DNA of 14,442 nt from Candidatus Thorarchaeota archaeon (GCA_016839605.1 JAEOTX010000175.1:1-14442); one strand, 5' to 3'; shown: positions 1,948 through 14,442, numbered from the stretch's first letter. Numbers and translations are program-made. The notes: generated from the sequence alone by a model not told the origin.

Positions 1948-2925
1948 ATGCTCATGAGAGCAATAGTATGGACAAAATATGGACCCCCAGAGGTTCTTCA
2001 GCTCAAAGAGGTATCAAAACCAACTCCGAAGCCTAATGAGCTTTTGATCAAGAATCATGCGATAACAGTAATAGCGGGGGATTGTGAAATGCGAGGCTTC
2101 AATTTCTCCTATCCTTTCCAAAAGAAGCTCCTCGTGCGAGCGTGGATCGGTCTCAGAAGACCCAGGAAGAAAATTCTGGGACAAGAACTGGCGGGCGTTG
2201 TTGAAGAAATCGGAAAGGACGTGACATTGTTTAAGGAAGGAGACCAAGTCTTTGCAGCTACCGGATCTGGAATGGCTGCTTATGCGGAGTACACATGTGT
2301 TTCTGAAAAGGGGCTTGTGGCAATAAAACCAGACAATATGACCTATGAAGAAGCCTCAACCATTCCAATTGGAGGACTAGAGGCATTGCATTTCATGAGA
2401 AAAGCAAACCTACAAAGTGGTCAGAAGATCTTGATCAATGGCGCAGGCGGCAGTATAGGAATTGTCGCAATCCAGCTAGCCAAGTACTGGGAGGCTGAAG
2501 TGACTGCAGTGGATATTGCGAGGAAGTTTGACATGATGCGTTCCCTTGGGGCAGACTATACTATCGATTACACTCAAGAGAATTTCACCGAAAGTGGTAA
2601 GATGTATGATGTCATCTTTGACATTGTGGGTAAAGCTCCGTTTTCAAGTTGCACGAGTTCACTGAGTGATAATGGAATCTACCTATTGGGAAACGGATGG
2701 CTGTCACGGAGTGATAAGAAAACTGCAGAAAGAAGCAACAAGAGAGCAATAGGCTACACTTCAGACTATCAAAGTAAGCATCTAATCTACCTCAAGGAGT
2801 TGATTGAGGCAGGAACGATAAGAACGTTCATTGAAAGAACATACCCATTGGAGGAGATGGCTGAAGCGCATAGGTATGTTGAAACAGGCCAGAAGATTGG
2901 AAATGTCGTCATAACCGTTGAGTAG
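1948..2925 (+). CDS. NAD(P)-dependent alcohol dehydrogenase / quinone-oxidoreductase-like MDR protein, copy 2 (tandem paralog)
   Basis: Same motifs as 915-1904 and colinear with it. By alignment to copy 1 the start may be ATG 1954. GAGGG lies upstream at 1940-1944. Confidence 0.93.
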   Translation: MLMRAIVWTKYGPPEVLQLKEVSKPTPKPNELLIKNHAITVIAGDCEMRGFNFSYPFQKKLLVRAWIGLRRPRKKILGQELAGVVEEIGKDVTLFKEGDQVFAATGSGMAAYAEYTCVSEKGLVAIKPDNMTYEEASTIPIGGLEALHFMRKANLQSGQKILINGAGGSIGIVAIQLAKYWEAEVTAVDIARKFDMMRSLGADYTIDYTQENFTESGKMYDVIFDIVGKAPFSSCTSSLSDNGIYLLGNGWLSRSDKKTAERSNKRAIGYTSDYQSKHLIYLKELIEAGTIRTFIERTYPLEEMAEAHRYVETGQKIGNVVITVE

Positions 2926-2926
2926 A

Positions 2927-3313
2927 CTACTCTTCTGGTTTAGTCCACTTCCATGCATACCAAACGATCAGTGCACAGAACACAACATACCCAATTCCCA
3001 TTATGTTTTCATACAAGGGTCTTGGCATGATGAATCCGATGCCATCAATAACGATGAAGACTATGGCTATGATGATGTTTGCCCAACGATTCGCTTTGTA
3101 GGGCAACTCCAAGGACAGGAAAACCATGAAGATTGGTGCTAGCATCATTATGGCAAAAACAGCCAACATTTCCTCAGTAAGTGGCACATCTAGGGTTCCC
3201 GCTATGATATCCTCTAGCATTCCAGGCTCCAAAAACCGTATGACATCACCCTGAAGGCTAGTTAGCATGCGAGCTATCCATAGTACTGAGAGTTTCTTCT
3301 TGATATCTTCCAC
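2927..3313 (-). CDS. DUF6326-like small 4-TM membrane protein
   Basis: LSxLW...M....GDV N-terminal pattern, M..PI.MVFL.L.LP, NRW.NI and terminal W.AW.W. GTG start with a GGTGA RBS 7 nt upstream. Clear paralog of 11440-11823. Family name is from recall, not from a search. Confidence 0.8.
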   Translation of the reverse strand: MEDIKKKLSVLWIARMLTSLQGDVIRFLEPGMLEDIIAGTLDVPLTEEMLAVFAIMMLAPIFMVFLSLELPYKANRWANIIIAIVFIVIDGIGFIMPRPLYENIMGIGYVVFCALIVWYAWKWTKPEE

Positions 3314-3357: not shown

Positions 3358-3462
3358 GGGGTTATGTGCGGTCTCTTGTAGAATATGAGTCTTGACAAGA
3401 ATACCCCCACGTCAGAAGATTGGGGATGTGGTCATAATCGTTGAGTAAAGAGGAGAAATGAC

Positions 3463-4545
3463 ATGGATATCGTTCTGTTATTCATCATTGGTATACCAGG
3501 CTTCTTTCTACTTCTGCTTATTGGCTTGTTGCTGTATAAACAATATTTGAGATATTCGACAAGAATAGAAACACCAAATGGAATAAGCTCATTGGAAGAG
3601 ATTACGCTTGGAGATTTGAAGCAGTGGATCCTCATCAGAGGTATGGATCAAAACAACCCAGTCCTAATGTTCTTACATGGTGGGCCTGGCGAACCAGCAG
3701 TGGGTATGTCAAGTTCCCGAAGATTAGATGCTGAATTAATTAAACATTTCACAGTAGTGCATTGGGACCAACGAGGAGGAGGGAAGTCATATAATACCAG
3801 TATCCCAGTTGATTCAATGACACTAGACAGACTAGTTGAAGATTGTAATGAGTTAATTGACCATTTACGAAATAGGTTTGACACACCTCGAGTCTTCATT
3901 GTCGCGCATTCATCAGGAACGTTGATCGGAATTAAAACTGCTCATAAATATCCAGGAAAAATACATGCCTATGTCGGAGTAGCGCAAATTATCAACGACT
4001 GTGAGCATGAGAGAATGAACTATGATTTTGTAGTTGAAGAAGCTGAACGATCTGGTAATGTAAAACATCAAATTGCGATAAAAGCAATTGGACCTCCACC
4101 TTATGAAACCCCCAAGAAATTATTCGAGAAAGCCAAGTATATTGTTCGATATGGAGGAATGATGGTAGATTCTTCCTTTAGGAAAATGATAGGTATTATA
4201 CTACCCTATTTGACATCACCTGAATATACATTGTCAGAAGGAATTAGAACGATATTGGGGAGGGGACGTAATTTCACTACGAACGCTTTGTGGAACGAAA
4301 TAATAGTTGTCAATTTTACAAAAGAGATAGAATCGATAAGAGTCCCCATTTACTTCTTTGAGGGCAAATATGATATGATTACTCCCACAGTTGTTGTTGA
4401 GGACTTCTACAAGAGCCTAGATGCTGAAAAGGGAAAGACACTTGTCATTTTTGAAAACTCGGGACACTGGCCAATGTTAGAAGAAAAGGAGAAGTACGAG
4501 GACATATTGGTAAACGTAGTTTTGAAAGAAAGTCAGAGTAAATAA
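3463..4545 (+). CDS. Membrane-anchored alpha/beta hydrolase (proline iminopeptidase-like family)
   Basis: N-terminal TM helix, LHGGPG, WDQRGGGKS, nucleophile elbow AHSSG, acid in GKYDMITP, His in SGHWP. GAGGAG RBS. Confidence 0.9.
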   Translation: MDIVLLFIIGIPGFFLLLLIGLLLYKQYLRYSTRIETPNGISSLEEITLGDLKQWILIRGMDQNNPVLMFLHGGPGEPAVGMSSSRRLDAELIKHFTVVHWDQRGGGKSYNTSIPVDSMTLDRLVEDCNELIDHLRNRFDTPRVFIVAHSSGTLIGIKTAHKYPGKIHAYVGVAQIINDCEHERMNYDFVVEEAERSGNVKHQIAIKAIGPPPYETPKKLFEKAKYIVRYGGMMVDSSFRKMIGIILPYLTSPEYTLSEGIRTILGRGRNFTTNALWNEIIVVNFTKEIESIRVPIYFFEGKYDMITPTVVVEDFYKSLDAEKGKTLVIFENSGHWPMLEEKEKYEDILVNVVLKESQSK

Positions 4546-4593: not shown

Positions 4594-4610
4594 GTTCTGA
4601 TAATTTGAAT

Positions 4611-4731
4611 ATTCAACCTAATGAATTTTTAATAAGGAAGACTTGACTCTTCGTAAGCTTGATAGTACATTGAAAATAGGGGCATAATTATGGAAACAAG
4701 TGAGTCTACTGAATCAAGCGATCCGCTTTTC
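4611..4731 (+). repeat. Direct repeat 1, left copy: diverged duplicate of the promoter and 5' end of the 798-aa gene
   Basis: Ungapped alignment to 5926-6046, 96/121 identical by hand count. Weaker similarity extends back to 4598/5913. Confidence 0.9.
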
Positions 4732-4743
4732 ATGGACAAGTGA
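4690..4743 (+). pseudogene. 17-codon remnant of the tannase/PKD gene (METSESTESSDPLFMDK*)
   Basis: Matches IVTSDSTESSDPFF at the N-terminus of 5999-8395, then ends FMDK-stop. TTCATGGACAAG recurs in frame at 8084-8095. Confidence 0.75.
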
Positions 4744-4926
4744 GCCTTGGTTTTATCTTTCTAACTCTTGGCTACTCTTCCTTAGGGATACTACAGTTGG
4801 TGGCTAAAATACCAGAAAGCATCCAATTAAGAAACTCGCTCTATGCTTTCGGAAGCAGAGTTATAAGAAGACCCAGAAACCTATCATAAAATAATCCAGT
4901 CTACTTCTTTAGAGGAGCCCGTTAGA

Positions 4927-5829
4927 TTGGCAGTAGAACTAATCTCCAAGAAATATCGCGAACTATACGCTTTCGCAATTGTAGTCGGACTCTTTCTCTT
5001 GATAGGGCTTTTCTACATCAATGCATGGGATCTATCCGCCCTCATTTCCACTGACTACATGGTCTTTCTCTTTTCTATGTCAGGTGTAACAATGAAGGTG
5101 CTTAGTGGAATTGGGATAATGCTGACCTATGCTTCTTTGTGTAGGTTTGCTTTGAGTATATTTTCAGATGGAATGAAAGGAAATCCATCTTTTGCTAGAA
5201 GAATAAAATTAGCGCTCCTGATACCGGTCGTAGTTCTTGTTGCATATGGAATATCCAAGATCGTAGGAGTGTCCATTTCAGGTGGGGGTACTATTGATTT
5301 GCTAATCACAATCTATGGTATCTGGTCTTTGATGCTATCTCTCTATGTATTTCCTGCTATCCAAGGAAGATATCAGCCTGAATACAAGAAGTCTAGGAGA
5401 GACGAAATTCAGAAACGATTTGGCGATGCAAAATTCTCGCTCTGGAGAGGTTATCAGACCCGAGTGCACAAGGAGTATGGTAAGGTATATGCAAAAGAGT
5501 TTGAAAGGTATGGAGAGAGATTGGACTACCTTCGAGCTCAACTCAGTGGAGTCATGCTTCTTCCATTAGGTATAGCATTGATCGTACTTCCTCCAATTCT
5601 TTTACCTCTGATTGTGCTTTGGCTGCGTTCTTTCACCTTACGCAGGAAGCCGTTGAGCCCATTTGAGAGGATATTCCTAGCTATAATGGCAATAGGAATA
5701 ATGCTGTTGAGTACATTAATATTCTTGATATTAGACGTAGCAGTAACACAGATACTCCTTGATACCGTCTATGGTCTGGGAATTCTCACTAGTATCATTG
5801 TCCTCGGATATATTGTGATATCTTCCTGA
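4927..5829 (+). CDS. Uncharacterised polytopic membrane protein (300 aa) with a basic soluble loop
   Basis: About 7-8 hydrophobic segments with a charged loop (YQPEYKKSRRDEIQKRF...). TTG start, GAGGAG at 4912-4917, TTATAAG at 4861-4867. Confidence 0.8.
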   Translation: MAVELISKKYRELYAFAIVVGLFLLIGLFYINAWDLSALISTDYMVFLFSMSGVTMKVLSGIGIMLTYASLCRFALSIFSDGMKGNPSFARRIKLALLIPVVVLVAYGISKIVGVSISGGGTIDLLITIYGIWSLMLSLYVFPAIQGRYQPEYKKSRRDEIQKRFGDAKFSLWRGYQTRVHKEYGKVYAKEFERYGERLDYLRAQLSGVMLLPLGIALIVLPPILLPLIVLWLRSFTLRRKPLSPFERIFLAIMAIGIMLLSTLIFLILDVAVTQILLDTVYGLGILTSIIVLGYIVISS

Positions 5830-5925
5830 TTGCTAGCTATGCCTACACCTAAGGTCTCTTGAGAATGGACATGTCCTAGGAAAGGTTGTCATTACAGTGG
5901 AACATGATTGATTGATGATTTGGCC

Positions 5926-6046
5926 ATTCAACCTTATGACTTTATAATCGGGAAGACTTGACTCTTTCTTAGCTTCATGATGGAGAGAAATCAGGTGTGT
6001 GATTATAGTAACAAGTGACTCTACTGAATCAAGCGATCCGTTTTTC
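5926..6046 (+). repeat. Direct repeat 1, right copy: working promoter, RBS and 5' end of the 798-aa gene
   Basis: Aligns to 4611-4731. Contains TTTATAAT (5941-5948) and AGGTG (5993-5997). Confidence 0.9.
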
Positions 6047-8395
6047 GCCGAACCATATGTAGATGTCGATGAATGGCGGGACGAACCCGTACGCCATCGG
6101 TATGTCCATGGCGGTTTCAAAGGTACTGATGCCCGGTTCTCGATCCACTTCCCACCCAAGGAGCAATACGATGGCCGGTTCTTCCAGTACATCCAACCAA
6201 TATCGGGAGACGAGTATACTGCACAGACACCGGGGGCTTATACATCAAGCTACTCGATAGGCTTTGCTATCGATAGCGGCGGCTATCTTGTGATATCAAA
6301 CCTGGGGAGGATGGACATGTTCACTGGCGATGATCCCACTATCCCGGGGTATCGGACCAGTGCTGCAGTGGCGAAGTATTCGCGAGTGTTGGCCTCTGAA
6401 ATGTATGGCGACCACCGTCCCTATGGTTATGCTTGGGGCGGAAGTGGTGGGGCATATAAGACCATCAGCTGCATAGAGAACACAGAGGGCGTCTGGGATG
6501 GTGTTGTGCCATTTGTACACGCGACACCAATCAGCATACCCTACAATTTCTCAGTACAGGCTCATGCGATGCGTGTGCTGGAAGATAAGATTCCCGCCAT
6601 CGTCGATGCTGTGGAGCCTGGCGGTAGCGGAGATATGTATGCTGACCTAAATGATGAGGAACGAGCAGCGCTCATGGAAGTGACTAAGATGGGATTTCCG
6701 CCAAGCGCTTGGTTCCATTACAGGATGATTGCTTTCGGCTACACAGGGGTCTTAACCACCCTATTTGACCAAATCATCAAGACTGACCCAACCTATGTTG
6801 AAGACTTTTGGAAAGTGCCAGGTTACCTTGGCGCTGACCCGCCTGAATCACTCCTACGCCGTCGGATAAACCATGAAACAACCATCAGCAAACTGATGAT
6901 GCCTAGTGAATTGAGGGAAATGGGCATTCCAGTAGCGTATTCAGCAGATGCTGCGAGTGACATAGAACCCCCGGCAGCGTTCATAATGGAGAATCTGCCT
7001 GAGGGTGACCTACAGGGAGCTTCAGTATTCCTGAGAAGCGGTGATGCTGAGGGCTGTGTGCTTTACATTGCTGGAGCTTTCGATAATATGGTCATGATTG
7101 CCTTCGGTCAGGATAACTTTCGACGGATGGTTGATATTAAGGTCGGTGATAAAGTAGAGATTGACAACTCTGTGTATCTCGCTTTTCAAACCTATCATCG
7201 TCACCAGAATCCACCACCTGAATACTATGTCTTTGATCAGTTTCGCGACGCCGATGGCAACCCATTGTATCCACAGCGACCCGAGATGTTCAAAGCTGAA
7301 ACGGGCGCGGGCTCAATTCAAACAGGTCGGTTTACTGGCAAGATGATCGTAGTACAGAATTTGATGGACGAAATCGCTTATGCTTGGCAGGCTGACTGGT
7401 ATCGCTCGAAGGTGAAAGACGCTTTGGGTGAGCAGTTCGAGGATAACTACCGTCTCTGGTTTGTCGACAATGCATTGCACACTCCACCAGTAGTCACGCC
7501 ACTTGACTCCCCGCCTGTCGTAACTACTCATGTCATCAACTACGGTGGCGTCTTGCAGCAAGCGTTACGTGATTTGAGCGCGTGGGTTGAAAGAAGCGAA
7601 GCGCCTCCTGCTAGCACACCATACAAAGTTGCTGAGGGCCAAGTGGAAGTTCCTCATAAGGCTTCAGATCGCAAGGGAGTGCAACCAGTAATCACAGTCA
7701 CTGCAAATGGGAGAGAACGAGCAGAGGTCAAAGTCGGGAAGAAGGTGAAATTCTCAGCGGTCATCGATGCACCGCCAGATGCTGGTACAATAGTCGGTGT
7801 GGAATGGGATTTCGAGGGTAATGGCGATTATCCGGTAGTCCAGAAGCTAAAGGACCCTAAGAAGAGCAGTGTGAAAGTGAAGACAGATTACACTTTCTCT
7901 GGGAGTGGTACATACTTCCCAGCGATTCGAGCAACATTGCATCGGAACGGTGATCCTGAAACTCCCTATGCAAGAGTCCAGAACATTGGTCGTGTGAGGG
8001 TGGTTGTGGAAGGCAAGAAGAAGGCGGAGGATGGCAAGGAAATAATCTTTGAGATGAAGAAACTGCCATCCGATTTCGGAGAGTTCATGGACAAGCTGGT
8101 GGATAAGATTGTACAACGAACCACTGTTGAGCAGGGTGTAGAAATCTCCACCATTGAAATAGGACCAAGAACTGGTCGTTCAACAAAGTTCCAACTTGAT
8201 CCCTCCACTCCGATCAATACTATCTATACATTAAGTTTCGAAGATATGGAGACAGGTATCGGAGTCTTCTTGAACCTTGATGTGGAGGTTTCGGGAGCCT
8301 ACAGATTAGCGAAGAAGACTATCCAGAAGGCGATTGCGAAACGTGTTGCTGAAAATGCGATAGAATTAATCACTGAAATCTTGGAGGGGCCCTGA
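5999..8395 (+). CDS. Tannase/feruloyl-esterase-like alpha/beta hydrolase with a PKD-like domain and an extra C-terminal domain (798 aa)
   Basis: Nucleophile elbow YAWGGSGGAYKT, candidate acid in QNLMDE and His in DNALH, PKD-type WDFEGNGDY..YTFS.SGTY near the end, then a ~128-aa extension after RVRVVV. Exact start uncertain (GTG 5999 or ATA 6005). Confidence 0.75.
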   Translation: MIIVTSDSTESSDPFFAEPYVDVDEWRDEPVRHRYVHGGFKGTDARFSIHFPPKEQYDGRFFQYIQPISGDEYTAQTPGAYTSSYSIGFAIDSGGYLVISNLGRMDMFTGDDPTIPGYRTSAAVAKYSRVLASEMYGDHRPYGYAWGGSGGAYKTISCIENTEGVWDGVVPFVHATPISIPYNFSVQAHAMRVLEDKIPAIVDAVEPGGSGDMYADLNDEERAALMEVTKMGFPPSAWFHYRMIAFGYTGVLTTLFDQIIKTDPTYVEDFWKVPGYLGADPPESLLRRRINHETTISKLMMPSELREMGIPVAYSADAASDIEPPAAFIMENLPEGDLQGASVFLRSGDAEGCVLYIAGAFDNMVMIAFGQDNFRRMVDIKVGDKVEIDNSVYLAFQTYHRHQNPPPEYYVFDQFRDADGNPLYPQRPEMFKAETGAGSIQTGRFTGKMIVVQNLMDEIAYAWQADWYRSKVKDALGEQFEDNYRLWFVDNALHTPPVVTPLDSPPVVTTHVINYGGVLQQALRDLSAWVERSEAPPASTPYKVAEGQVEVPHKASDRKGVQPVITVTANGRERAEVKVGKKVKFSAVIDAPPDAGTIVGVEWDFEGNGDYPVVQKLKDPKKSSVKVKTDYTFSGSGTYFPAIRATLHRNGDPETPYARVQNIGRVRVVVEGKKKAEDGKEIIFEMKKLPSDFGEFMDKLVDKIVQRTTVEQGVEISTIEIGPRTGRSTKFQLDPSTPINTIYTLSFEDMETGIGVFLNLDVEVSGAYRLAKKTIQKAIAKRVAENAIELITEILEGP

Positions 8396-8443
8396 ACCAC
8401 TAATCTATTGCCCAAAAGACAAGAAATCATCATCAATCATCGT
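8370..8443 (+). repeat. Direct repeat 2, left copy: true 3' end of the 798-aa gene plus a duplicate carboxylesterase 3' end
   Basis: 69/74 identical to 9512-9585; the last 42 bp (8402-8443) are identical. The minus strand of 8405-8443 reads TMIDDDFLSFGQ*. Confidence 0.95.
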
Positions 8444-9367
8444 TCACTCTTGGCAGTTCGTCTCATGAGAGGTATCCATCTTGTCGTTGATCTCGTTCAC
8501 GGCCTCCTCGAGATCATCGGCTGTCCGCATTGAGGTGGCTGTCGGGACGCTCGTAGTGACGAAGTGTTGCGCGTACGGGAAGCACGCTACCTCGAACGGC
8601 GCCGGGTCCAGTGCGCCAGCGCCGAAGGTGTTGGTGCACAGCGAGATATCATCGAGAGGGAGTTTCAGCGCCTGCGCCATCTCCTTCGGATCGAACACCA
8701 GACTGAACGGCTTGGTGCATTGCTGCAGCTCACCGCCGTAGTCGACTGAGAGATTGCCCTCGACCCACAGGCGCTGATTGAGTTCAGTTAGCACACCATT
8801 CTTCATGTCGGCGACTAAGACGAGGCTGTTGTCAGACTGCGCGCTCGCAACATCAATGATGATCTCTCCGAGATAAGATGTCGTGACTACCGAATGCGAC
8901 GTACTTGGACCGATGAAGCCCTGGCTCGGGTCGTAGCTATGCGTGTTGCTCTCATACTCAATGATGACCCATGAGAGAAGGCCCGTTTCGCAGTTCTCAG
9001 CAATCAGATAATATTCCACGCGGCTCCCCCAAAACACGCTCGTGTGTACGTTGAAGGCGCCAACGATCGCGCACAGTCGCTTGGGAGTATCGCTGAACAT
9101 CCCCGAAGGGAACAAGCTGTAGTTCGGCGGCAACAACCGCTCGACCGTTTCAGTATCGGTGACCTCAAAGGCAAGGAACACACTGTACGGTTCAACGATG
9201 AAGCTCATGTACGGATTGGAGCGCGCCCCTCTTTTGACGATGTACCGCTGGAGTCTGAGCGGCAGCTTGCGGAGAAAGCCACTACCCTGGGTCGTGGACG
9301 CAACCTTGGCAGGCACGACCATCTTCTCGGTAGTCTTGATATAACGTCGAAGATCCTTGACTTTCAT
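8444..9367 (-). CDS. GC-rich hypothetical protein (307 aa), possibly acetoacetate-decarboxylase-like fold
   Basis: Long ORF with a GTGAGGAG RBS before the ATG. The VERLLPPNYSL segment followed by beta-rich stretches recalls ADC/DUF2071-type proteins (weak). GC about 57-62% in two 60-nt spot counts. Confidence 0.75.
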   Translation of the reverse strand: MKVKDLRRYIKTTEKMVVPAKVASTTQGSGFLRKLPLRLQRYIVKRGARSNPYMSFIVEPYSVFLAFEVTDTETVERLLPPNYSLFPSGMFSDTPKRLCAIVGAFNVHTSVFWGSRVEYYLIAENCETGLLSWVIIEYESNTHSYDPSQGFIGPSTSHSVVTTSYLGEIIIDVASAQSDNSLVLVADMKNGVLTELNQRLWVEGNLSVDYGGELQQCTKPFSLVFDPKEMAQALKLPLDDISLCTNTFGAGALDPAPFEVACFPYAQHFVTTSVPTATSMRTADDLEEAVNEINDKMDTSHETNCQE

Positions 9368-9467
9368 GACATCTCCTCACATTAACGTTTCATGATACTT
9401 CTGTTTCTCTTTCAGCACATCAGAACTATTGACTTCCATGAATCCACACTCTATACCTTTCTCGCGG

Positions 9468-9509
9468 CATATCAAACTACCCACTACCTTCATATCAAAC
9501 TACCCACTA
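9468..9509. repeat. Tandem perfect 19-bp repeat (period 23)
   Basis: CATATCAAACTACCCACTA at 9468-9486 and 9491-9509, separated by CCTT. Confidence 0.95.
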
Positions 9510-9511
9510 AC

Positions 9512-9585
9512 TCACTGAAATCTTGGAGAGGACCTAAATCACCAATCTATTGCCCAAAAGACAAGAAATCATCATCAATCATCGT
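9512..9585 (+). repeat. Direct repeat 2, right copy: orphan 3' end of the 798-aa gene plus the true carboxylesterase 3' end
   Basis: Plus strand reads TEILERT* (versus TEILEGP* at 8372-8395); 69/74 identical to 8370-8443. Confidence 0.95.
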
Positions 9586-11271
9586 CAGCACTAATCCTCG
9601 CTCAGGCTCCTCAAGCTCAGTATTCACGAGATTGACTACATCTTTTGTGGCTATCTTTTCCTTCAAGTAGGATATTCGAAGATCATCGAGGCCTGCATCT
9701 AGTACGATAACCTTATCGACTCCTTCAGTGTTATCCCAGACAGGCCAATGAGGCAAGTCATCATGGTTAGGATTTCCTGTTCTCGCAAAATTCGCCAGAT
9801 AGCTCATGCATAGATCAGTCAGTTTCTCACGGCCAGGTTTGTTGCGTTTGTTGTGTGTTTTTCCTGTCAGCAGTGCTATGTCACCTCCACCCATTCCCAA
9901 AAAGAAAGGAATCTCAGCTGCATGATGTGCTCCCAGTTCTCGTCCCTTCTTCCCTGGAAGAACGCTCTCACCATGTTCATCTACACTTCCCCAATCGAAC
10001 CTATACACATAGACAGGTGCATCACTGCCAGAGGTCATCTTTATGGCCAATTCATCAACACCATTTGCACGCCATAGCATTGAGAAGTATCTCCAGACAA
10101 GATCATATTCTCGGGTGTTCAATGGCGGATTCTTTCTGAACCATCCAAAGAGCTTCATTTCATCCTTTGTGCAACCAATGATTACTGGAACTTCATTGGC
10201 CCACTCCTCGGATGAAAAGATGTCATAGCCCTCCTTTGGAATCACGGTTCCATCAGCAAAAATAGTCCGCCATGCTGCCATTCCAAAATCCCTGGTTGGG
10301 ATGTTCTTCATGATTGTGAAAGCAGATTTCGATCGAAGATATTCGTCAATCTCATCATCTTGCATCTTGCTGATGACCTGCTTAGCCTCTTCTACATCCC
10401 CAGCTCTTCGGTCCTTCACCAAGAGGGCCGCGAGAAGATTGTCGCTCTGGCTTTTCGCCTCCTCAGGACTCCAGATAAATGATAGACCACTCTCTACAAC
10501 TGCGCGGCGAAAGAGCCCCTTTGCACGGTGAGAAGCTAGGAGTGAAAGTACATTGAAGGCCCCTCCAGATTCCCCAGCTACTGTTACGTTGTTTGGATCA
10601 CCGCCAAAAGCTCCGATGCTGTCCCGCACCCACTCCAAAGCCTTTACTAAGTCAAGAGTCCCATAATTCCCGCTCTGGTCTTCCGGAGAACCAGTGCCTG
10701 TTACTGCTGGATGGATAAACCAGCCCATTGCACCTAGGCGGTAGTTGACTGAAACGTACAACATGTTTGATTTCTCAACCACAGCATTCCCATTGTAGGA
10801 TGATGTGGCGGATGACCCAATGGAATTCCCTCCTCCATGTATATACATGTAAACCGGTAACTCTGTTTCTGTACTCTTGGGGCGCCAGATATTGAGGTAG
10901 AGACAGTCTTCCGACCCACCTGGACCAAGAAACATCATTATTTGTGCTGCTGAACTCCCAAACTTCTTTGCCTTACGTATGCCGAGCCATGGAATAGGAT
11001 CAAGTGGTGCTTTCCACCGTAGTGGTCCTTCGGGGGGAGCGGCATACGGAATTCCTTTCCAACACCAAGTGCCTTTGTCAGAGAAACCCTCTACTATGCC
11101 ATATTTGGTTTGAACAACTGAATCATTCTTCCACATTCCGATTTCATAGAGGTGTTCTGAGGGTTCCGGCTCGAAAAGTCGTTTTGTGCTTTGAGATACA
11201 ATTCTCTTGACAGAAAGTAGTATCTTTATAATCGGGGAGAATAGCTTTCCTAATTGCATGAGTCGTGACAC
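9547..11271 (-). CDS. Type-B carboxylesterase (COesterase family, p-nitrobenzyl esterase-like)
   Basis: WKGIPYAAPP.G.LRWKAP, SEDCLYLNIW, YIHGGG, NYRLG, FGGDPNNVTVAGESGG nucleophile, TKDE acid, GAHHAAEIPF His, NFARTGNPN. GTG start. Confidence 0.95.
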   Translation of the reverse strand: MSRLMQLGKLFSPIIKILLSVKRIVSQSTKRLFEPEPSEHLYEIGMWKNDSVVQTKYGIVEGFSDKGTWCWKGIPYAAPPEGPLRWKAPLDPIPWLGIRKAKKFGSSAAQIMMFLGPGGSEDCLYLNIWRPKSTETELPVYMYIHGGGNSIGSSATSSYNGNAVVEKSNMLYVSVNYRLGAMGWFIHPAVTGTGSPEDQSGNYGTLDLVKALEWVRDSIGAFGGDPNNVTVAGESGGAFNVLSLLASHRAKGLFRRAVVESGLSFIWSPEEAKSQSDNLLAALLVKDRRAGDVEEAKQVISKMQDDEIDEYLRSKSAFTIMKNIPTRDFGMAAWRTIFADGTVIPKEGYDIFSSEEWANEVPVIIGCTKDEMKLFGWFRKNPPLNTREYDLVWRYFSMLWRANGVDELAIKMTSGSDAPVYVYRFDWGSVDEHGESVLPGKKGRELGAHHAAEIPFFLGMGGGDIALLTGKTHNKRNKPGREKLTDLCMSYLANFARTGNPNHDDLPHWPVWDNTEGVDKVIVLDAGLDDLRISYLKEKIATKDVVNLVNTELEEPERGLVLTMIDDDFLSFGQ

Positions 11272-11439
11272 TGTTTCACACCAGAATGGGTTATTCTATA
11301 GTCAGAATCAAAACAGATTCTCTCAGAAATATCTGTTCTTCTTCTGTACTTGATGATTGCAGAAGCATTGGAGCATTGATAGACTCTTTGGCAGTTGCTT
11401 TATTTCAGTGTGTCATAAAAGCCAGACTGTGACAGAATC

Positions 11440-11823
11440 ATGGAAGACGTTCAGATTATTCTATCAGCGTTATGGGTTTCTCTGATGTTGACCTATCTCT
11501 TGGGAGACGTTATTCGAATCTTTGGCGGTGACTTCGTAGCAGGAGAAATGTCAGGTCAAAAAGCAACTCAAGCGATGTGGATGGGAGCAGCATTATTCAT
11601 GCTAATACCAATTGTTATGGTGTTCTTGGTCCTAGTTCTACCAAATCCAATTAATGGCTGGCTAAACATCATCTCAGCGGTGTTCCTTTTCCTATTCAAC
11701 CTCGCAGGGGTGCGTTCATACCCAGGTCTTTACGACAGGTTTCTGATAGTTGTTGGTCTTGTGTTCAATGTAGTGACTGTTTGGTTTGCATGGAATTGGA
11801 TCTTTGTAGTTAGCCCCACCTGA
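11440..11823 (+). CDS. DUF6326-like small 4-TM membrane protein (second paralog)
   Basis: LSALWVSLMLTYLLGDVIR, MLIPIVMVFLVLVLP, NGWLNII, VWFAWNW. Aligns end to end with 2927-3313. Confidence 0.82.
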   Translation: MEDVQIILSALWVSLMLTYLLGDVIRIFGGDFVAGEMSGQKATQAMWMGAALFMLIPIVMVFLVLVLPNPINGWLNIISAVFLFLFNLAGVRSYPGLYDRFLIVVGLVFNVVTVWFAWNWIFVVSPT

Positions 11824-11872
11824 CAGAGTATGTCACACATCTTCAGTGGCTGATGCAAGTGAAGATAGGAAG

Positions 11873-12205
11873 TCAGAATATCTTGGTAAGGTAATACTCC
11901 TTGACATCATTCGGATACGCGTCCGAAGAACCAAGAATTTCGTACCCCTGACTCTTCAAGAACTCCAGATTCTGGAATGAGAAACAAGCAACCTGTCCTG
12001 CTATGCATCTCCTTTCCTTAGCAAGAGTTTCAGCATACATCAATAGATCCTTTCCATATCCCAAGCCACGATGTGCCTCATCGACCCAGAATTCGGCTAT
12101 GTTCAATATCCCAAGTGTTGTATATCCACTTATTCCTCCAATCACTTCTCCATCGTCACTTTTTATCACCGAACAATAGTCGGTATGCGGGTGTTCCTTC
12201 AGAAA
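11873..12205 (-). CDS. Second GNAT acetyltransferase domain: C-terminal part of a frameshifted two-domain GNAT gene
   Basis: GEVIGGI and WVDEAHRGLGYGKDLL acetyl-CoA motif. The frame is open upstream of GTG 12169 back to the A9 run (FLKEHPHTDYCSVIK). The first strand and helix of this domain are encoded at the end of the 12199-12771 ORF. Confidence 0.8.
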   Translation of the reverse strand, partial: FLKEHPHTDYCSVIKSDDGEVIGGISGYTTLGILNIAEFWVDEAHRGLGYGKDLLMYAETLAKERRCIAGQVACFSFQNLEFLKSQGYEILGSSDAYPNDVKEYYLTKIF

Positions 12206-12771
12206 TTTTTTTTTGCATGCTTGTCAAAGTTCCTACCAAGCCCAGCACGAACCGTTTTAATCTCTTCTTCTGAGGGGTCTGATGTGATTGCAAACCGGTC
12301 TGGGCCTGCCTTTGGAGTTATCCTATCATCTAAAGAGTCGAGGCGGGTCATCAAGACATGTTCTTTAATCCCACTATGATAGCCATCATAGGTCACAATG
12401 AGGTCGTAACCAACAGCCTGATAGAACTCAGGTGCTTGCCATGAGAATGTGTAGACATGGGATGAGATGCACCCTATCTCCTTTGCCAATTTCTGCGCCT
12501 CTATGACGAGGTCTCTTCCATATCCTAGTCCTCGATGCTTTTCATCGACCCAGAGTACCTCAAGATATTGAGTCCAGTAGAGCGTACTCGTGAGGATGCC
12601 ACCAATGACTTCACCCTCTTTATTCTTCAAGATCAGATTGTGCCAGGGTTGCGGGCTGTCGAACTCCCTATTGGTCTTCTCCATGTTGTAAGACTCCAGT
12701 CCTTGCTGAAACTTCTTCACCTCTTCATCAGTCGGGTCGCTTACAACTGCATATCGATTTGATTTACTCAT
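12199..12771 (-). CDS. GNAT N-acetyltransferase: first domain plus the start of the second, stopping just after an A9 run
   Basis: LWVDEKHRGLGYGRDLV and TFSWQAPEFYQAVGY. Internal repeat RYAVVSDPTDEEVK / RFAITSDPSEEEIK. Strong GAGGAGGT RBS. Confidence 0.88.
   Translation of the reverse strand: MSKSNRYAVVSDPTDEEVKKFQQGLESYNMEKTNREFDSPQPWHNLILKNKEGEVIGGILTSTLYWTQYLEVLWVDEKHRGLGYGRDLVIEAQKLAKEIGCISSHVYTFSWQAPEFYQAVGYDLIVTYDGYHSGIKEHVLMTRLDSLDDRITPKAGPDRFAITSDPSEEEIKTVRAGLGRNFDKHAKKNF
12205..12214 (-). other. A9 homopolymer / slippery heptamer A AAA AAT joining the two GNAT ORFs in the -1 frame
   Basis: Minus strand reads CAT GCA AAA AAA AAT TTC TGA; the -1 frame continues TTT CTG AAG GAA CAC to the stop at 11873. 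Confidence 0.8.
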
Positions 12772-12965
12772 TTCAAGACCTCCTCACGCAATAAAGAAGC
12801 CAACTCCTCTTCACTTAATATCTTTCTAGCTGCGCCATGCAGGATGTCACTTGTCAGTATCGAGATTGATTGAATCTTTCTTGGTATTGTAAGCCAATCC
12901 TTAAATATAGTTAAGTTGAAGATAGATGAGTGGATTAGAATTATTTTACTTAGGAGGACTCAGCA

Positions 12966-13571
12966 ATTTCAGACGTATTCAAGACAGTTGAAGAAAGCTA
13001 TGATAAGATGGGAGAGCAGTACCATAGATTCAGAGATAATGGAAAGTTCAACCAGCAACTGAGGGAGTTCACCGAACTACTGCCGCCTTCAGGTCAAGTA
13101 CTTGATGCAGGCTGTGGTGTTGGAAAACCAACGTCAGAATTTCTGGCACAGAAGGGATTTGACATAACAGGAGTCGACATTTCCAAGAAGATGGTTGACT
13201 TAGCAAAGGAGAATGTTCCAACGGCGATGTTCTATCAGAGGAACATACTCACATTGGACTTCCCGGATGATTCGTTTGACGGCATCATATGTGTGTACAC
13301 GTTATGGCATATCCCAAGAATGAACCACCCAACAATAATCCAGAACTTCCATCGAATGCTAAAGAATGGTGGAATACTAGTTCTCAATACAGGAGTATAC
13401 GAATCAGAAGGAATTAGTGAGTTCTTTGGAGAGCCAATGTTGTGGAGCACCAACGATCCGAAGAAGACCTTAGCAGTCGTGAAGAATCTTGGTTTTGACA
13501 TTATTCATGAAGGAGTACTGAAACTAGGTGGAGAACGGCAATACTGGATATTCGCAAAGAAAGTGGCTTGA
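12966..13571 (+). CDS. Class I SAM-dependent methyltransferase; first ATG at 13008, likely true start ATT at 12966
   Basis: VLDAGCGVG motif I, GVDIS, SFDGII, LKNGGILVL. The in-frame upstream extension SDVFKTVEESYDKM follows an AGGAGG at 12952-12957. Confidence 0.9.
   Translation: MSDVFKTVEESYDKMGEQYHRFRDNGKFNQQLREFTELLPPSGQVLDAGCGVGKPTSEFLAQKGFDITGVDISKKMVDLAKENVPTAMFYQRNILTLDFPDDSFDGIICVYTLWHIPRMNHPTIIQNFHRMLKNGGILVLNTGVYESEGISEFFGEPMLWSTNDPKKTLAVVKNLGFDIIHEGVLKLGGERQYWIFAKKVA
13518..13571 (+). repeat. Direct repeat 3, left copy: working 3' end of the methyltransferase
   Basis: Encodes LKLGGERQYWIFAKKVA*; 43/54 nt identical to 14354-14407. Confidence 0.9.
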
Positions 13572-13580
13572 TCTAGCACA

Positions 13581-14270
13581 CTAGATTATATCTCGGAATT
13601 TATTCGTTGTGCGTCTGGATCCCAAAGCTGCAAGCCAATTGAAAAGGATACAGAAAATCTTTGGCGGGTACCCAACTTTTTTCAACTCGTATTTAACCAG
13701 GTCATCAAAAGATGAAATTGGCTCATTGCGGGTTACAATCCATTTCTCGAGTAGAATCAAATCATTACTTCCATCCCAATTAATTGATGGAATTTCGTTG
13801 AATGAAATGACATTCTCCTTAATGAGTCCTGAATACAGAGATTCATCAAATAGTGCTTCACAAGAAACCCATTCATTGTCAAGATAACATTCGCACCAAG
13901 CATGTCCAATTGGATCTGGAATGCGGTTGAATAAGAACTTGGGTACAAAGTGTCTGAGGATTTCTTTGTCTATTTGGGCATATTGCATTCTTGCGGGTAT
14001 GCCTACAGCTCGTAGGAAGGCTGAATGAAGATTGATTTTGTTGCAGTAGTCTACAGTGCCTTCCTCAATCGTTGTTGATGCCTTCTTGAAGATGTTAAGT
14101 GTTGAATTGAATAGAATTTCGTCTCTAACCCAATAGAATATCTTCAGAGCAGATTCTTTCTTATTTACGGAGTCATTGACTATTTCTTGTGCTTTCCTCT
14201 TCAGTGACTCATTATGACAATCGCAATATTCTGTTGAAACCAAGTATCTATCCACTGACTGGTTCATCAA
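13581..14270 (-). CDS. Transglutaminase-like superfamily protein (putative cysteine protease)
   Basis: IFYWVRDEI, catalytic Cys in DYCNKINLHSAFLRAVGIPAR, His in GHAWCECYL, then EWVSCEA. Start TTG 14270 or ATG 14267. Confidence 0.88.
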   Translation of the reverse strand: MMNQSVDRYLVSTEYCDCHNESLKRKAQEIVNDSVNKKESALKIFYWVRDEILFNSTLNIFKKASTTIEEGTVDYCNKINLHSAFLRAVGIPARMQYAQIDKEILRHFVPKFLFNRIPDPIGHAWCECYLDNEWVSCEALFDESLYSGLIKENVISFNEIPSINWDGSNDLILLEKWIVTRNEPISSFDDLVKYELKKVGYPPKIFCILFNWLAALGSRRTTNKFRDII

Positions 14271-14353
14271 ATCACTTTCTTTGAAAAAGCAATGACATCA
14301 AATAGTCATACTAATCTCCTCTTTAACCTGCTCATTAAACGGGTGAGATGACT

Positions 14354-14407
14354 CTGAAATTAGGTAAAGAAAGGCAATGGTGGATATTTGCTAAAAAGGT
14401 GGCTTAA
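14354..14407 (+). pseudogene. Direct repeat 3, right copy: orphan 3'-end remnant of the methyltransferase (LKLGKERQWWIFAKKVA*)
   Basis: 15/17 aa identical to the methyltransferase C-terminus with the stop in register. Seven of the 11 nucleotide differences are silent, including TGA/TAA. Confidence 0.88.
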
Positions 14408-14442
14408 TCCACAAAGCAGTTCATTCCGCTCACCTTCCTAAA

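Follow-up and report, generated by a model that had tools for sequence, protein, structure and literature searches.

Results and Discussion

A 14,442-nt stretch of Candidatus Thorarchaeota archaeon DNA (JAEOTX010000175.1:1-14442, GCA_016839605.1; hereafter the window) carries four one-gene cassettes, each lying between direct repeats built from the end of a neighbouring gene. We propose that these are the scars of additive gene insertion by general break or replication repair, with no recombinase involved, a reading to which we give an even chance of being correct; gene gain at this locus probably proceeds by general break repair with no dedicated gene-capture machine. What we observe is insertion polymorphism, local duplicates, a lack of mobility genes and site motifs, fossil alleles, mosaicism and one microhomology joint. 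The window comes from a metagenome-assembled genome (G000) in 259 contigs, ~80% complete and with 4.6% contamination.

Four cassettes bracketed by duplicated gene ends

Three of the direct-repeat pairs, R1 to R3, had been noted in a preliminary description of the sequence. All three cassettes were recovered here and their repeats are composed as described there, from a 5′ end at R1, two 3′ ends at R2 and one 3′ end at R3; the 121 nt at 79% identity given for R1 are the core of a longer duplicate. That account overlooked a fourth cassette, encoding a DUF6326 protein between the R0 copies, and a further orphan gene end, from a third type of alcohol dehydrogenase (ADH) gene (Table 1). The duplicates R0, R1, R2 and R3 measure ~40, 134, 74 and 56 nt and thus have no fixed length. 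Across the four cassettes bracket identity is 78–93% at lengths of 35–134 nt, and the longest exact runs in R0, R1 and R3 are ~10–21 nt. At each bracket one copy of the gene end is working and the other is orphaned beyond the cargo.

Table 1. Features of the window at and around the four cassettes
Feature	Coordinates	Strand	Basis or remark
ADH2, zinc-type alcohol dehydrogenase/quinone oxidoreductase	1948..2925	+	Pfam ADH_N/ADH_zinc_N
R0 working copy, last 13 codons of ADH2	~2885-2925	+	repeat search; alignment with L103
Cargo 0, 128-aa DUF6326 membrane protein	2927..3313	-	Pfam PF19851, E 2e-11
R0 orphan, cast-off ADH2 tail (RQKIGDVVIIVE, then stop)	3408..3450	+	repeat search; L103 alignment
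Alpha/beta hydrolase, 360 aa	3463..4545	+	Pfam
R1 orphan, displaced promoter and first 14 codons of 798-aa gene	4598..4731	+	repeat search
Cargo 1, mem300, 300-aa membrane protein	4927..5829	+	sequence comparison
Orphan tail of third-type ADH gene (GHVLGKVVITVEHD, then stop)	5865..5907	+	repeat search
R1 working copy, promoter and start (GTG 5999) of 798-aa gene	5913..6046	+	repeat search
798-aa conserved protein	5999..8395	+	no known family
R2 left, working 798-aa gene tail, spacer, orphan carboxylesterase tail	8370..8443	+	repeat search
Cargo 2, gc307, 307-aa GC-rich protein	8444..9367	-	sequence comparison
gc307 upstream region, ~21–23-nt tandem units in variable number	9368..9511	-	comparison among Thorarchaeota
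R2 right, orphan 798-aa gene tail (ERT, then stop), spacer, working carboxylesterase tail	9512..9585	+	repeat search
Carboxylesterase (COesterase family), 574 aa	9547..11271	-	Pfam
SAM-dependent methyltransferase, 187 aa	13008..13571	+	Pfam; last 18 codons are the R3 working copy (13518-13573)
Cargo 3, 229-aa transglutaminase-core protein	13581..14270	-	Pfam PF01841, E 2.4e-12
R3 orphan, methyltransferase tail	14354..14409	+	in frame, stop at the same place

At R0, nucleotides 2885-2924 are duplicated at 3408-3447 with 85% identity, and the orphan tail directly precedes the hydrolase start, as the real ADH tail does in G005 and L103. The R1 copies (134 nt ungapped, 78% identity, spacing 1315) hold the promoter and start of the 798-aa gene, and the orphan now reads as a 17-codon mini-ORF with its ATG at 4690. 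R2 (74 nt, 93%, spacing 1142) joins the 3′ ends of two convergent genes, 8 codons from the 798-aa gene and 13 from the carboxylesterase gene, across a 9-nt spacer. The carboxylesterase half has 0/39 differences between the copies compared with 5/35 in the other half, and a block of 43 nt is identical between them. The R3 copies (56 nt, 80%) are spaced 836 nt apart and the contig ends 33 nt past the orphan.

Such duplicates are not confined to the window. Across G000, repeat pairs no more than 6 kb apart lie on the same strand in 75 cases and on opposite strands in 1, on 31 contigs, and a strict scan with the last 54 nt of each ORF returned 19 same-strand matches and 0 opposite-strand ones; this same-strand excess rejects chance matching for the repeat pairs. 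Contigs C84, C20 and C244 carry arrays, C84 with nine stacked rps19 tails. On C24 a tRNA 3′ end is present in three copies, showing classical serial integration. Orphan fragments are likewise found in L054, a complete chromosome.

Empty sites in relatives and fossil alleles at the locus

The preliminary description took the cassettes to be insertions and proposed that empty-site alleles be sought in relatives. We found such alleles for every cassette among relatives and metagenome contigs, and the cassettes are therefore, as judged from these comparisons, real insertions. In L103 and G005 ADH2 runs straight into the hydrolase gene and cargo 0 is missing, whilst in L092 the 798-aa gene directly follows the hydrolase. 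The 798-aa gene is directly convergent with the carboxylesterase gene, with no gc307 between, in G015, G005, G020 and L080, and G015 has the 74-nt R2 segment in exactly one copy. Cargo 3 is missing downstream of the methyltransferase gene in G005. The hydrolase gene is itself resident in some relatives and, by synteny, lacking from L078 and L086. The locus is also variable in content: a different insert at the hotspot in G002 has no bracket, the R1 site of L103 has a bracket with different cargo, and the same-hotspot inserts in G002, G005 and L103 include a lipase, an ABC transporter, a glycyl-radical enzyme, DUF4256 and DUF1801. The separate insertion events suggested earlier are supported. 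Tandem duplication followed by decay was also considered and rejected, as relatives carry single copies without cargo and in none of them did we find the second full-length paralog at these positions that the preliminary description had associated with such a history.

The duplicates arose locally at the recipient site: both the R1 and the R2 copy pairs share lineage-specific states that relatives lack. Moreover, the brackets are not borne by the cargo, since gc307 (G005, AB_25) and mem300 (G056, G051) stand unbracketed elsewhere. The orphans in turn preserve older alleles. At R1, identity to the single copy of L103 and L086 is 0.76–0.77 for the orphan and 0.64–0.69 for the working copy, which is therefore the more divergent allele. 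At R3, the copies differ at 11/54 nt with only 2 residues changed (P = 0.00015), and the orphan holds ancestral states where the working copy has 5 derived synonymous changes, which is suggestive of a replaced allele at the working end. The right-hand R2 orphan tail, ERT followed by a stop, is the working allele in L103, and in the left R2 copy of L103 the five variable sites combine states from both G000 copies, so that this copy is a hybrid. In sliding windows the working tails of ADH2 and the methyltransferase gene show no excess divergence from relatives compared with the gene bodies.

Origin of the cargo genes

No Pfam family matches gc307, and a likeness to acetoacetate decarboxylase is an atlas lead only. 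The gene is ~90% identical at the nucleotide level to a Chloroflexota copy, across domains, and in bacteria (L016, L023) it is a canonical integron gene cassette, a mobile ORF without a promoter that bears attC. The integron integrase profile TIGR02249 scores above cut-off in the bacterial genomes holding L032 and L053 and has no match in the genome of AB_25. The Thorarchaeota copies have lost attC, and 144 nt of upstream sequence accompany the gene. Relative to a larger unit common to G005, AB_25 and bin27, the gc307 unit is cut at 9511/9512, and the G000 piece is a sub-fragment of this unit, which other Thorarchaeota share. The joints were analysed for microhomology at R2, the one cassette with donor context: one joint has 11 nt of microhomology (ACGATGATTGA) and the other, which falls within the larger unit, ≤1 nt. 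The native context of gc307 has no homology to the R2 target, and R2 has no homologous anchor; it looks like a plain 74-nt target duplication with two illegitimate joints. Two proposals of the preliminary description find no support in these data. Integration by homology to both neighbouring ends does not fit R2, with its lack of target homology and its microhomology joint, and discrete ~1-kb cassettes cycling as circles are at odds with the sub-fragment, with unbracketed gc307 and mem300 elsewhere and with the unbracketed G002 insert.

The history of mem300, which likewise has no Pfam match, is different. It is 87–91% identical in nucleotides to G056 and G051, which belong to other genera, and only 37–40% identical in amino acids within its own genus, and is an inter-genus import. 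The third-type ADH orphan tail abuts the right-hand R1 copy; in L078 and L086 an ADH gene lies immediately upstream of the 798-aa gene. This tail is a fossil of the earlier neighbourhood of cargo 1. Compared with G015, the 5′ ~1 kb of the 798-aa gene is ~87% identical and the 3′ ~1.3 kb 95–100%, with a step near 7040-7070, and hence the gene is a mosaic whose 5′ part has a history unlike that of its 3′ part. This step is ~1 kb away from the R1 cassette, and of the two starts the working one is the divergent allele. The picture at R1 resembles homologous exchange on one side only, from a diverged donor. The involvement of related-strain DNA, as suggested earlier, is borne out by the fossil alleles, the mosaic gene and the inter-genus import.

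Mobility machinery and site signatures

Pfam and repeat searches agree with the preliminary description in that the window contains no integrase or transposase domain and no terminal inverted repeats at cargo edges. Nor did we find a motif common to the four brackets, again as described before for three. The window repeats fold into hairpins no better than shuffles (z +0.2 to +0.85), and no attC was found at the window cassette boundaries, canonical attC being present only at the bacterial gc307 loci. Searches of G000, an assembly only 80% complete from which a trans-acting enzyme could be missing, gave no match to PF00589, PF00239, HNH, Ku or RVT_1, and PF00589 was found in only 4/16 searched genomes of the genus. 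LAGLIDADG occurs in G000 only within two very long ORFs (1144 and 543 aa). Nuclease domains were found neither in the four cargos (Pfam, NCBIfam) nor in the same-site inserts of G002, G005 and L103. For none of the cassettes was a donor arrangement recovered.

A proposed repair-based route and its rivals

We propose the following route, in which the source of the breaks, the order of events and the repair pathway acting are what we infer. A break would arise near the end of a resident gene, and DNA of a related lineage or of foreign origin would serve to mend it. Homologous exchange within the resident gene, or simple fill-in, would settle one side, and the other would be closed by an illegitimate joint with little or no homology; given that Ku was not found, this putative joining step would have to be microhomology-mediated. 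Where the illegitimate joint falls inside sequence also provided by the incoming or refilled DNA, the gene start or end would be doubled, one copy working and the other stranded beyond the new gene as a fossil. Selection would then retain only insertions in which neither neighbour is damaged, and only repeats short and diverged enough not to recombine the insert out, which would explain why the brackets are gene termini of 35–134 nt. Later homologous exchange with relatives may rewrite the working copy whilst the orphan keeps the old allele, and a stranded promoter-plus-start copy could then drive the captured gene. As a counterpoint, no single sub-mechanism fits all four events.

An unlikely alternative, though one with a close anatomical precedent, is displacement by homing nucleases as in WHO and mORF elements. 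A site-specific endonuclease, either specified by the unit itself or supplied in trans, would have cut each gene end, repair from an element-bearing allele would have installed a cleavage-resistant end together with the element and pushed the old end aside, and the nuclease genes would since have decayed or been replaced, leaving hitch-hiking cargo. The anatomy is that of the WHO/FBA1 clusters, down to carried fossils of previous host sites; at R1 and R3 the working ends resemble replaced alleles, chimerism is seen in the 798-aa gene, and the stacked rps19 tails suggest that one site was targeted repeatedly. These stacks are hard to derive from random breaks and hint at a site-specific cutter. 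However, 0/4 cargos is a nuclease, the same-hotspot inserts encode other functions, G000 gave no HNH match and LAGLIDADG only inside the two long ORFs, four targets within 14 kb would require four lost nucleases, and the ADH2 and methyltransferase working tails are no more diverged than their gene bodies. The model of the preliminary description, in which ~1-kb circles of cargo and gene end enter and leave by a Campbell-type single crossover using host homologous recombination, we hold to be rather improbable. Single-crossover topology fits every locus, the hybrid left R2 of L103 is expected if copies exchange, the arrays on C84, C20 and C244 have the appearance of serial integration, and short homologies can suffice for recombination in some archaea. 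However, the model cannot explain the first insertion, because the circle must already join the recipient gene end to foreign cargo, which needs a prior illegitimate event. Moreover, cargo edges differ from those of a conserved unit, gc307 and mem300 occur without brackets and the G002 insert without repeats, and repeats of this length and identity are poor recombination substrates.

Insertion by an unrecognised trans-acting site-specific recombinase or integrase that duplicates long target segments, its gene lying elsewhere in the genome or absent from the incomplete assembly, appears very improbable. The identical R2 block resembles an att core, serial integration at a tRNA is seen on C24 and the genome is incomplete; against this, the brackets have no common motif or hairpins, the duplicates vary widely in length, R0, R1 and R3 lack an identical core, the same cargo occurs elsewhere without brackets, and G000 yielded neither tyrosine nor serine recombinases, which are rare in the genus. 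Scarcely credible, finally, and largely refuted, is the reading that the brackets are strain-chimeric assembly joins or tandem duplicates decayed to their ends. The fragmented, partly contaminated assembly, the contig end just after the R3 orphan and the true tandem paralogy of ADH1 and ADH2 would favour it. However, the independent contig L103 reproduces the junction of the 798-aa gene tail with gc307 at 96% identity, a de Bruijn assembler would not be misled by exact runs as short as the ~10–21 nt of R0, R1 and R3, orphan fragments occur in a complete chromosome (L054) as well, and relatives are single-copy.

Comparison with known systems

The repair-based route resembles homology-facilitated illegitimate recombination (de Vries & Wackernagel 2002, Prudhomme et al. 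2002, Jackson et al. 2009, as cited in PMC5361080), or "displacement", as in the arrays at rhs/cdi and Vibrio cholerae T6SS effector-immunity loci (Kirchberger et al. 2017, PMC5361080). As in those arrays, homology would hold the incoming DNA at one end while the other end would be joined illegitimately, the displaced part of the old gene persists as an orphan, no integrase is required, and successive events build up arrays. However, the rhs/cdi and T6SS arrays displace a variable toxin tip along with its immunity gene, and what comes in has a functional tie to the gene, whereas here the gene end is merely duplicated, the cargo is unrelated (membrane proteins, enzymes) and both 5′ and 3′ ends are used. 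The host here belongs to an uncultured Asgard lineage in which natural transformation is not known.

A working gene, the inserted gene or genes and then a cast-off duplicate of the gene end is also the layout of the WHO and mORF elements. The mORF elements belong to fungal mitochondria. In the WHO elements of Torulaspora and Lachancea yeasts, which sit at FBA1 (Coughlan et al. 2020, PMC7282813), the working end is replaced by another allele, as seems so here at R1 and may be so at R3, and, as here, fossils of earlier host sites travel with the insert and the host gene is chimeric. Unlike WHO elements, the four units and the same sites in relatives lack the defining endonuclease gene, and the fragments are 35–134 nt rather than ~400 nt, at four different targets side by side.

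Gene-end integrative elements with a replacement fragment include e14 and phage 21 at icd, SXT at prfC and tRNA-targeting islands. They share with this locus a gene-end direct repeat with one working and one orphan copy and an intact target gene. However, these elements have integrase genes, are much larger and bring an att sequence of their own to every site, whereas gc307 and mem300 carry no att copy elsewhere and no integrase was found. In contrast to transposons and IS elements, the cassettes have no transposase and no inverted repeats at cargo edges, and their duplicates vary in length. Integrons, including archaeal integrons, are enriched in Asgard genomes (Ghaly et al. 2022, bioRxiv 10.1101/2022.02.06.479319). 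As in integrons, single-gene units accumulate at one spot, a candidate upstream promoter copy can drive captured genes (L103), and gc307 is a genuine integron cassette in bacteria. In integrons the cassette boundaries are formed by attC sites, imperfect hairpins whose cores are RYYYAAC and GTTRRRY. Here there is no IntI, attI or attC, and the brackets are pieces of neighbouring genes without hairpin or core sites. The term "integron-like hotspot" used in the preliminary description is apt as an analogy for what results, but it does not carry over to the mechanism.

Uptake of foreign, often bacterial genes by Asgard archaea bears on the bacterial genes of the archaeal ancestor of eukaryotes. 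This locus offers dated, base-resolved examples of gene gain with empty sites and traceable sources, namely an integron cassette shared with Chloroflexota and an inter-genus import, in genomes mostly without integrases. If the scars mark general repair-based capture, orphan gene termini would be a countable signature of gene gain in uncultured lineages and would also explain "hotspots without mobile elements". It is possible, though doubtful, that Thorarchaeota gain single genes mainly in this recombinase-free manner genome-wide, with breaks at termini capturing gene-sized pieces from other genera and from bacterial integrons, the latter without their attC, duplication of the terminus leaving neighbours unharmed, and stranded promoter-plus-start copies expressing the gene. 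If so, this would be a diffuse, machinery-free counterpart of the integron in the archaeal lineage closest to eukaryotes. Orphan termini and the mini-ORFs that they form can, moreover, mislead gene callers and annotation.

Four cargo genes lie between direct repeats of neighbouring gene ends

Each of four genes in the window sits between two direct copies of the end of an adjacent gene, one copy working and the other orphaned. The preliminary description had reported three such brackets; their positions and spacings are as claimed and their identities are near the claimed values. Their composition was also borne out by the sequence: R1 (around mem300) comprises the promoter and first 14 codons of a gene for a 798-aa protein, R2 (around gc307) the tails of that gene and of the convergent carboxylesterase gene, joined by a 9-nt spacer, and R3 (around tg229) the last 18 codons of a methyltransferase gene. 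A fourth bracket, R0, had been missed, in which the ADH2 tail is repeated at 85% identity. The orphan tail is followed directly by the hydrolase start, like the real ADH tail in the relative G005 and in metagenome contig L103, and therefore the DUF6326 gene between the R0 copies (c128) constitutes a fourth cassette of the same kind. Also missed was a 14-codon tail (…GHVLGKVVITVEHD*) of a third ADH type, orphaned and abutting the working R1 copy. The brackets are ~40 (R0), ~134 (R1), ~74 (R2) and ~56 nt (R3) long, with base-sharp edges, and the longest exact runs within R0, R1 and R3 are only about 10–21 nt. No motif is common to the repeats across the four brackets, and their lengths differ; the preliminary description had likewise seen no motif shared by its three repeats.

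Features of the window discussed in the text
Feature	Position	Strand
ADH1	915–1904	+
ADH2	1948–2925	+
R0, working copy (ADH2 tail)	2885–2924	
DUF6326 protein (c128)	2927–3313	-
R0, orphan copy	3408–3447	
Alpha/beta hydrolase	3463–4545	+
R1, orphan copy	4598–4731	
300-aa membrane protein (mem300)	4927–5829	+
Orphan tail of third ADH type	5865–5907	
R1, working copy	5913–6046	
798-aa protein, no known family	5999–8395	+
307-aa GC-rich protein (gc307)	8444–9367	-
Carboxylesterase	9547–11271	-
DUF6326 (second paralog)	11440–11823	+
Two GNAT ORFs	11873–12771	-
Methyltransferase	13008–13571	+
Transglutaminase-core protein (tg229)	13581–14270	-

ADH1 and ADH2 are tandem paralogs with ~71% nt identity. 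The sole inverted repeat of the window (2944–2985 versus 11759–11800) joins the two DUF6326 paralogs, which lie in opposite orientation. The GNAT gene may be split or frameshifted, as its ORFs (11873–12169 and 12199–12771; 98 and 190 aa) are equivalent to a single 298-aa ORF in the relative G002 (L012 18084–18980). The window makes up all of contig C112 in the assembly G000, which amounts to 3.08 Mb on 259 contigs and is 80% complete and 4.6% contaminated. All the genomes are metagenome-assembled genomes (MAGs), and the negative results on recombination machinery come from incomplete genomes and mean not found in those searched.

The cassettes are insertions at re-used sites

An empty allele was found for every cassette, identifying them as insertions. 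ADH runs straight into the hydrolase gene in G005 and L103 (no c128), the hydrolase gene straight into the 798-aa gene in L092 (no mem300), and the 798-aa gene is directly convergent with the carboxylesterase gene in G015, G005, G020 and contig L080 (no gc307), whilst tg229 is absent after the methyltransferase gene in G005. The 74-nt R2 segment is single copy in G015, and both window copies match it. Moreover, the whole interval from ADH to the 798-aa gene is empty in L078 and L086, in agreement with the orphan ADH tail abutting the working R1 copy. The preliminary description had allowed that relatives might instead carry two full-length paralogs at these positions, through ordinary duplication and decay; no such relative was found, and that objection thus falls. 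A reading as assembly artefact is largely refuted by the shortness of the exact runs, by the independent contig L103, in which the 798-aa gene tail meets gc307 in the same way (96% identity), and by orphan pieces in a complete Thorarchaeota chromosome (L054, CP070761.1). There, at 5565–6114 next to the carboxylesterase gene, a ~190-nt orphan piece of the 798-aa gene accompanies gc307 reduced to its first 38 codons (100% aa identity); these are what decay has left of this neighbourhood in a distant lineage.

The sites are insertion hotspots that are re-used. In G002 the 798-aa and carboxylesterase genes are separated by a GDSL lipase and an ABC transporter, and in both G005 and G002 genes for a glycyl-radical enzyme and its activase precede the 798-aa gene. 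At the R1 site, L103 holds DUF4256 and DUF1801 genes between 32-nt repeats of its own, each a copy of the start of the R1 segment. No bracket was found around the G002 insert at the R2 hotspot, and therefore duplication is a frequent but non-obligatory outcome of insertion here.

Brackets form at the recipient site and orphans are fossil alleles

Comparison of the cassettes across genomes shows that the brackets arise at the recipient site. We found no flanking repeats around gc307 in G005, AB_25 and bin27, nor around mem300 in G056 and G051. Both copies of R1 and both of R2 share lineage-specific states absent from relatives, including a ~35-nt promoter-region deletion in both R1 copies. The gc307 units of G005, AB_25 and bin27 have further sequence in common beyond the edge at 9512, so the G000 piece is a sub-fragment cut from a larger unit. 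The native 3′ flank of gc307, ACGATGATTGA, is identical to the first 11 nt of the carboxylesterase-tail repeat. With this overlap at one edge and the unit cut at the other, the R2 joints comprise one 11-nt microhomology and one of at most 1 nt. Taken together, the original observation is confirmed and extended. Its interpretation, that integrase-less single-gene cassettes are captured in an integron-like manner through short homology, is partly supported: the empty sites show real insertions, but the gc307 edges are not those of a whole unit, and gc307 and mem300 are unbracketed elsewhere.

The orphans are fossils of older alleles, the working copies probably having been re-written by homologous exchange with diverged relatives at insertion or later. 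Between the R3 orphan and its working counterpart, 11 of 54 nt differ, but only two residues are changed and the stop codon is in place; simulation rejects simple neutral decay of in-situ duplicates for R3 (P = 0.00015). The distance of the orphan to the working tail (11 differences) is on a par with that to the orthologous tails of G009 and G005 (8–9). Polarised by direct reading of the sequences with these two outgroups, the working copy has five derived changes, all synonymous; the orphan retains the ancestral state at those sites and its own changes are mostly non-synonymous. Comparison of R0 with L103 points the same way. At R2 the orphan 798-aa tail (…ERT*) is the working allele in L103, and the working tail of G000 matches G015. 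Identity to the single R1 copy in L086 and L103 is 0.76–0.77 for the orphan and 0.64–0.69 for the working copy. That the orphan was imported fits the polarised data less well than an old allele beside a re-written working copy. Moreover, relative to G015, the 798-aa gene is ~87% identical over its 5′ ~1 kb, on the mem300 side, and 95–100% identical over its 3′ ~1.3 kb, with a step near 7040–7070. The carboxylesterase gene is also patchy, and in both genes blocks of 95–100% adjoin blocks of 71–87%. These fine-scale mosaics indicate that species of the genus often exchange short tracts by homologous recombination.

Origins of the cargo genes

gc307 is present in 42 species, with 84–88% aa identity in Chloroflexota, Bathyarchaeia and Thermodesulfobacteriota. 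Its nt identity to a contig of a Chloroflexota MAG is ~90%, pointing to a recent cross-domain transfer. In bacteria it is a canonical integron gene cassette: in L016 and L023 an attC (GTCTAAC … inverted repeat … GTTAGCC) follows ~75 nt after its stop codon, and L032 and L053 are attC arrays whose genomes encode integron integrases (IntI) above the TIGR02249 cut-off. The Thorarchaeota copies carry no attC and have only ~8–11 nt in common with bacterial copies after the stop codon; the attC has been lost from them. No PDB sequence match to gc307 was found, and its one functional pointer is an atlas lead, to an acetoacetate-decarboxylase-like family. In Thorarchaeota, ~21–23-nt tandem units (AGT[TG]GGTAGTTTGATAT-like) lie upstream of gc307 (9368–9511 in the window), in a copy number that varies between genomes (L015 ~5933–5977; L014 ~5879–5899).

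mem300 is 87–91% identical at the nt level to copies in two other genera, versus a best match of 37–40% aa within the genus of G000, and is therefore a recent inter-genus import. For both gc307 and mem300, homology covers the ORF with 43–144 nt upstream and 3–11 nt downstream. As homology ends so close to the stop codon, we considered a cDNA-type insertion; it was dropped since G000 has no reverse transcriptase match and no T-run follows the mem300 stop codon. None of the cargos bears mobility-gene marks.

Similar repeats and arrays elsewhere in the genome

Such repeats exceed chance and extend beyond the window. We counted 75 same-strand repeat pairs on 31 contigs of G000, compared with a single opposite-strand pair (30–300 nt, ≥75% identity, 0.3–6 kb apart); a first pass had given 113 and 2. 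A more stringent search took the final 54 nt of 2729 ORFs and required at least 39 matching positions within ±6 kb, yielding 19 same-strand and 0 opposite-strand matches. The upstream edge is sharp in 6 of the 19, two of these lying in the window. The count is a minimum, as it leaves out 5′ orphans and those shorter than the probe. At no fewer than 12 further loci, one copy belongs to a working gene terminus, the second is intergenic and 1–3 genes separate the two. Non-Thorarchaeota loci proved unusable as a density control, since they turned out to be integron arrays.

Arrays occur on four contigs. That on C84 consists of nine rps19-type tails. C20 (L060 ~3079–14806) has at least nine direct repeats of ~65 nt, 0.4–2 kb apart, and the contig end falls inside the last copy. 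On the reverse strand these repeats read AAGGAGA-ATG plus ~17 codons (M[CWR]QL[AV]GLSRARAAHISHN…), opening ORFs of only 2–45 codons; the array thus looks like a stack of orphaned gene-head-like segments. C244 (L062) carries three direct repeats of ~100–120 nt (3921–4040, 4695–4815, 5993–6092), 88–93% identical and spaced 0.8–1.3 kb. On C24 (L063) there are three tRNA 3′ ends with T-arm, acceptor stem and CCA (197–242, 1094–1132, 3494–3539). Repeated tRNA 3′ ends of this kind are the classic mark of successive integrations at a tRNA gene. No complete tRNA was called on C24, ARAGORN called none on the array contigs, and no integrase was found in G000, the genome bearing this array.

Machinery and mechanism

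Single-strand, attC-like folds of the repeats were no better than shuffled controls. Rfam gave no match in the window and one sub-threshold match on another contig. Tyrosine and serine recombinases (PF00589, PF00239), HNH, Ku and RVT_1 were not found in G000, which is 80% complete; LAGLIDADG occurs only inside two very long ORFs, and none of the ten TnpB-type matches is in the window. Among relatives (G001–G024), PF00589 was found in 4 of 16 genus genomes and 9 of 24 family genomes searched. No strong Xer-like match was recovered in the family genomes searched, compared with presence in most other Asgard families searched; this prompts the question how chromosome dimers are resolved in these archaea.

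The most economical reading of these loci is additive insertion during repair. A break near a gene terminus would be mended with related or foreign DNA, one side being resolved by homology or fill-in and the other joined illegitimately; we propose that this illegitimate joining duplicates the terminus and strands the old copy. R1 fits well as a one-sided homologous exchange: the imported DNA would begin upstream of mem300, include the fossil ADH tail and a divergent promoter and start, and extend over the first ~1 kb of the 798-aa gene, with the illegitimate joint at 4731/4732. R2 is consistent with duplication of a 74-nt target and two illegitimate joints, and R0 and R3 with a local duplication after which the working copy was re-written. 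That brackets are short, diverged gene termini would reflect survivorship, as an event is retained only when both neighbours are spared, and a repeat pair persists only when it does not lead to loss of the insert by recombination. No donor arrangement was recovered for any cassette, and that expected for mem300 (ADH-type gene, mem300, ADH tail, 798-aa gene) was not seen in any of the 60 family genomes searched.

A homing endonuclease is the chief rival reading, above all for the long arrays. The outcome at the window loci matches that of the WHO elements of yeasts, including fossils of earlier host sites (PMC7282813), and of fungal mitochondrial mORFs. However, an endonuclease defines those systems, whereas it is missing at all four sites and in relatives, and no nuclease is supported at the window locus. 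The outcome also matches homology-facilitated illegitimate recombination (HFIR) and the displacement arrays of rhs/cdi and Vibrio T6SS, where the displaced part is a variable toxin tip (PMC5361080). The loci are neither integrase-borne elements nor transposons and, having no IntI or attC, not an integron, although one cargo, gc307, is known elsewhere as an integron cassette and Asgard genomes show an enrichment of integrons (bioRxiv 10.1101/2022.02.06.479319). A limited full-text literature search found no description of this pattern in Asgard archaea.

Under repair-based insertion, a stranded gene head may serve the cargo, with expression suggested by the arrangement of the sequences. In L103 (3215–3320 and 4657–4688) the orphaned promoter of the 798-aa gene is fused directly to the start codon (ATG) of the captured DUF4256 gene, and the 798-aa gene survives only as its last 157 codons (4854–5324). 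In G000, mem300 lies ~200 nt downstream of the orphan R1 head on the same strand.
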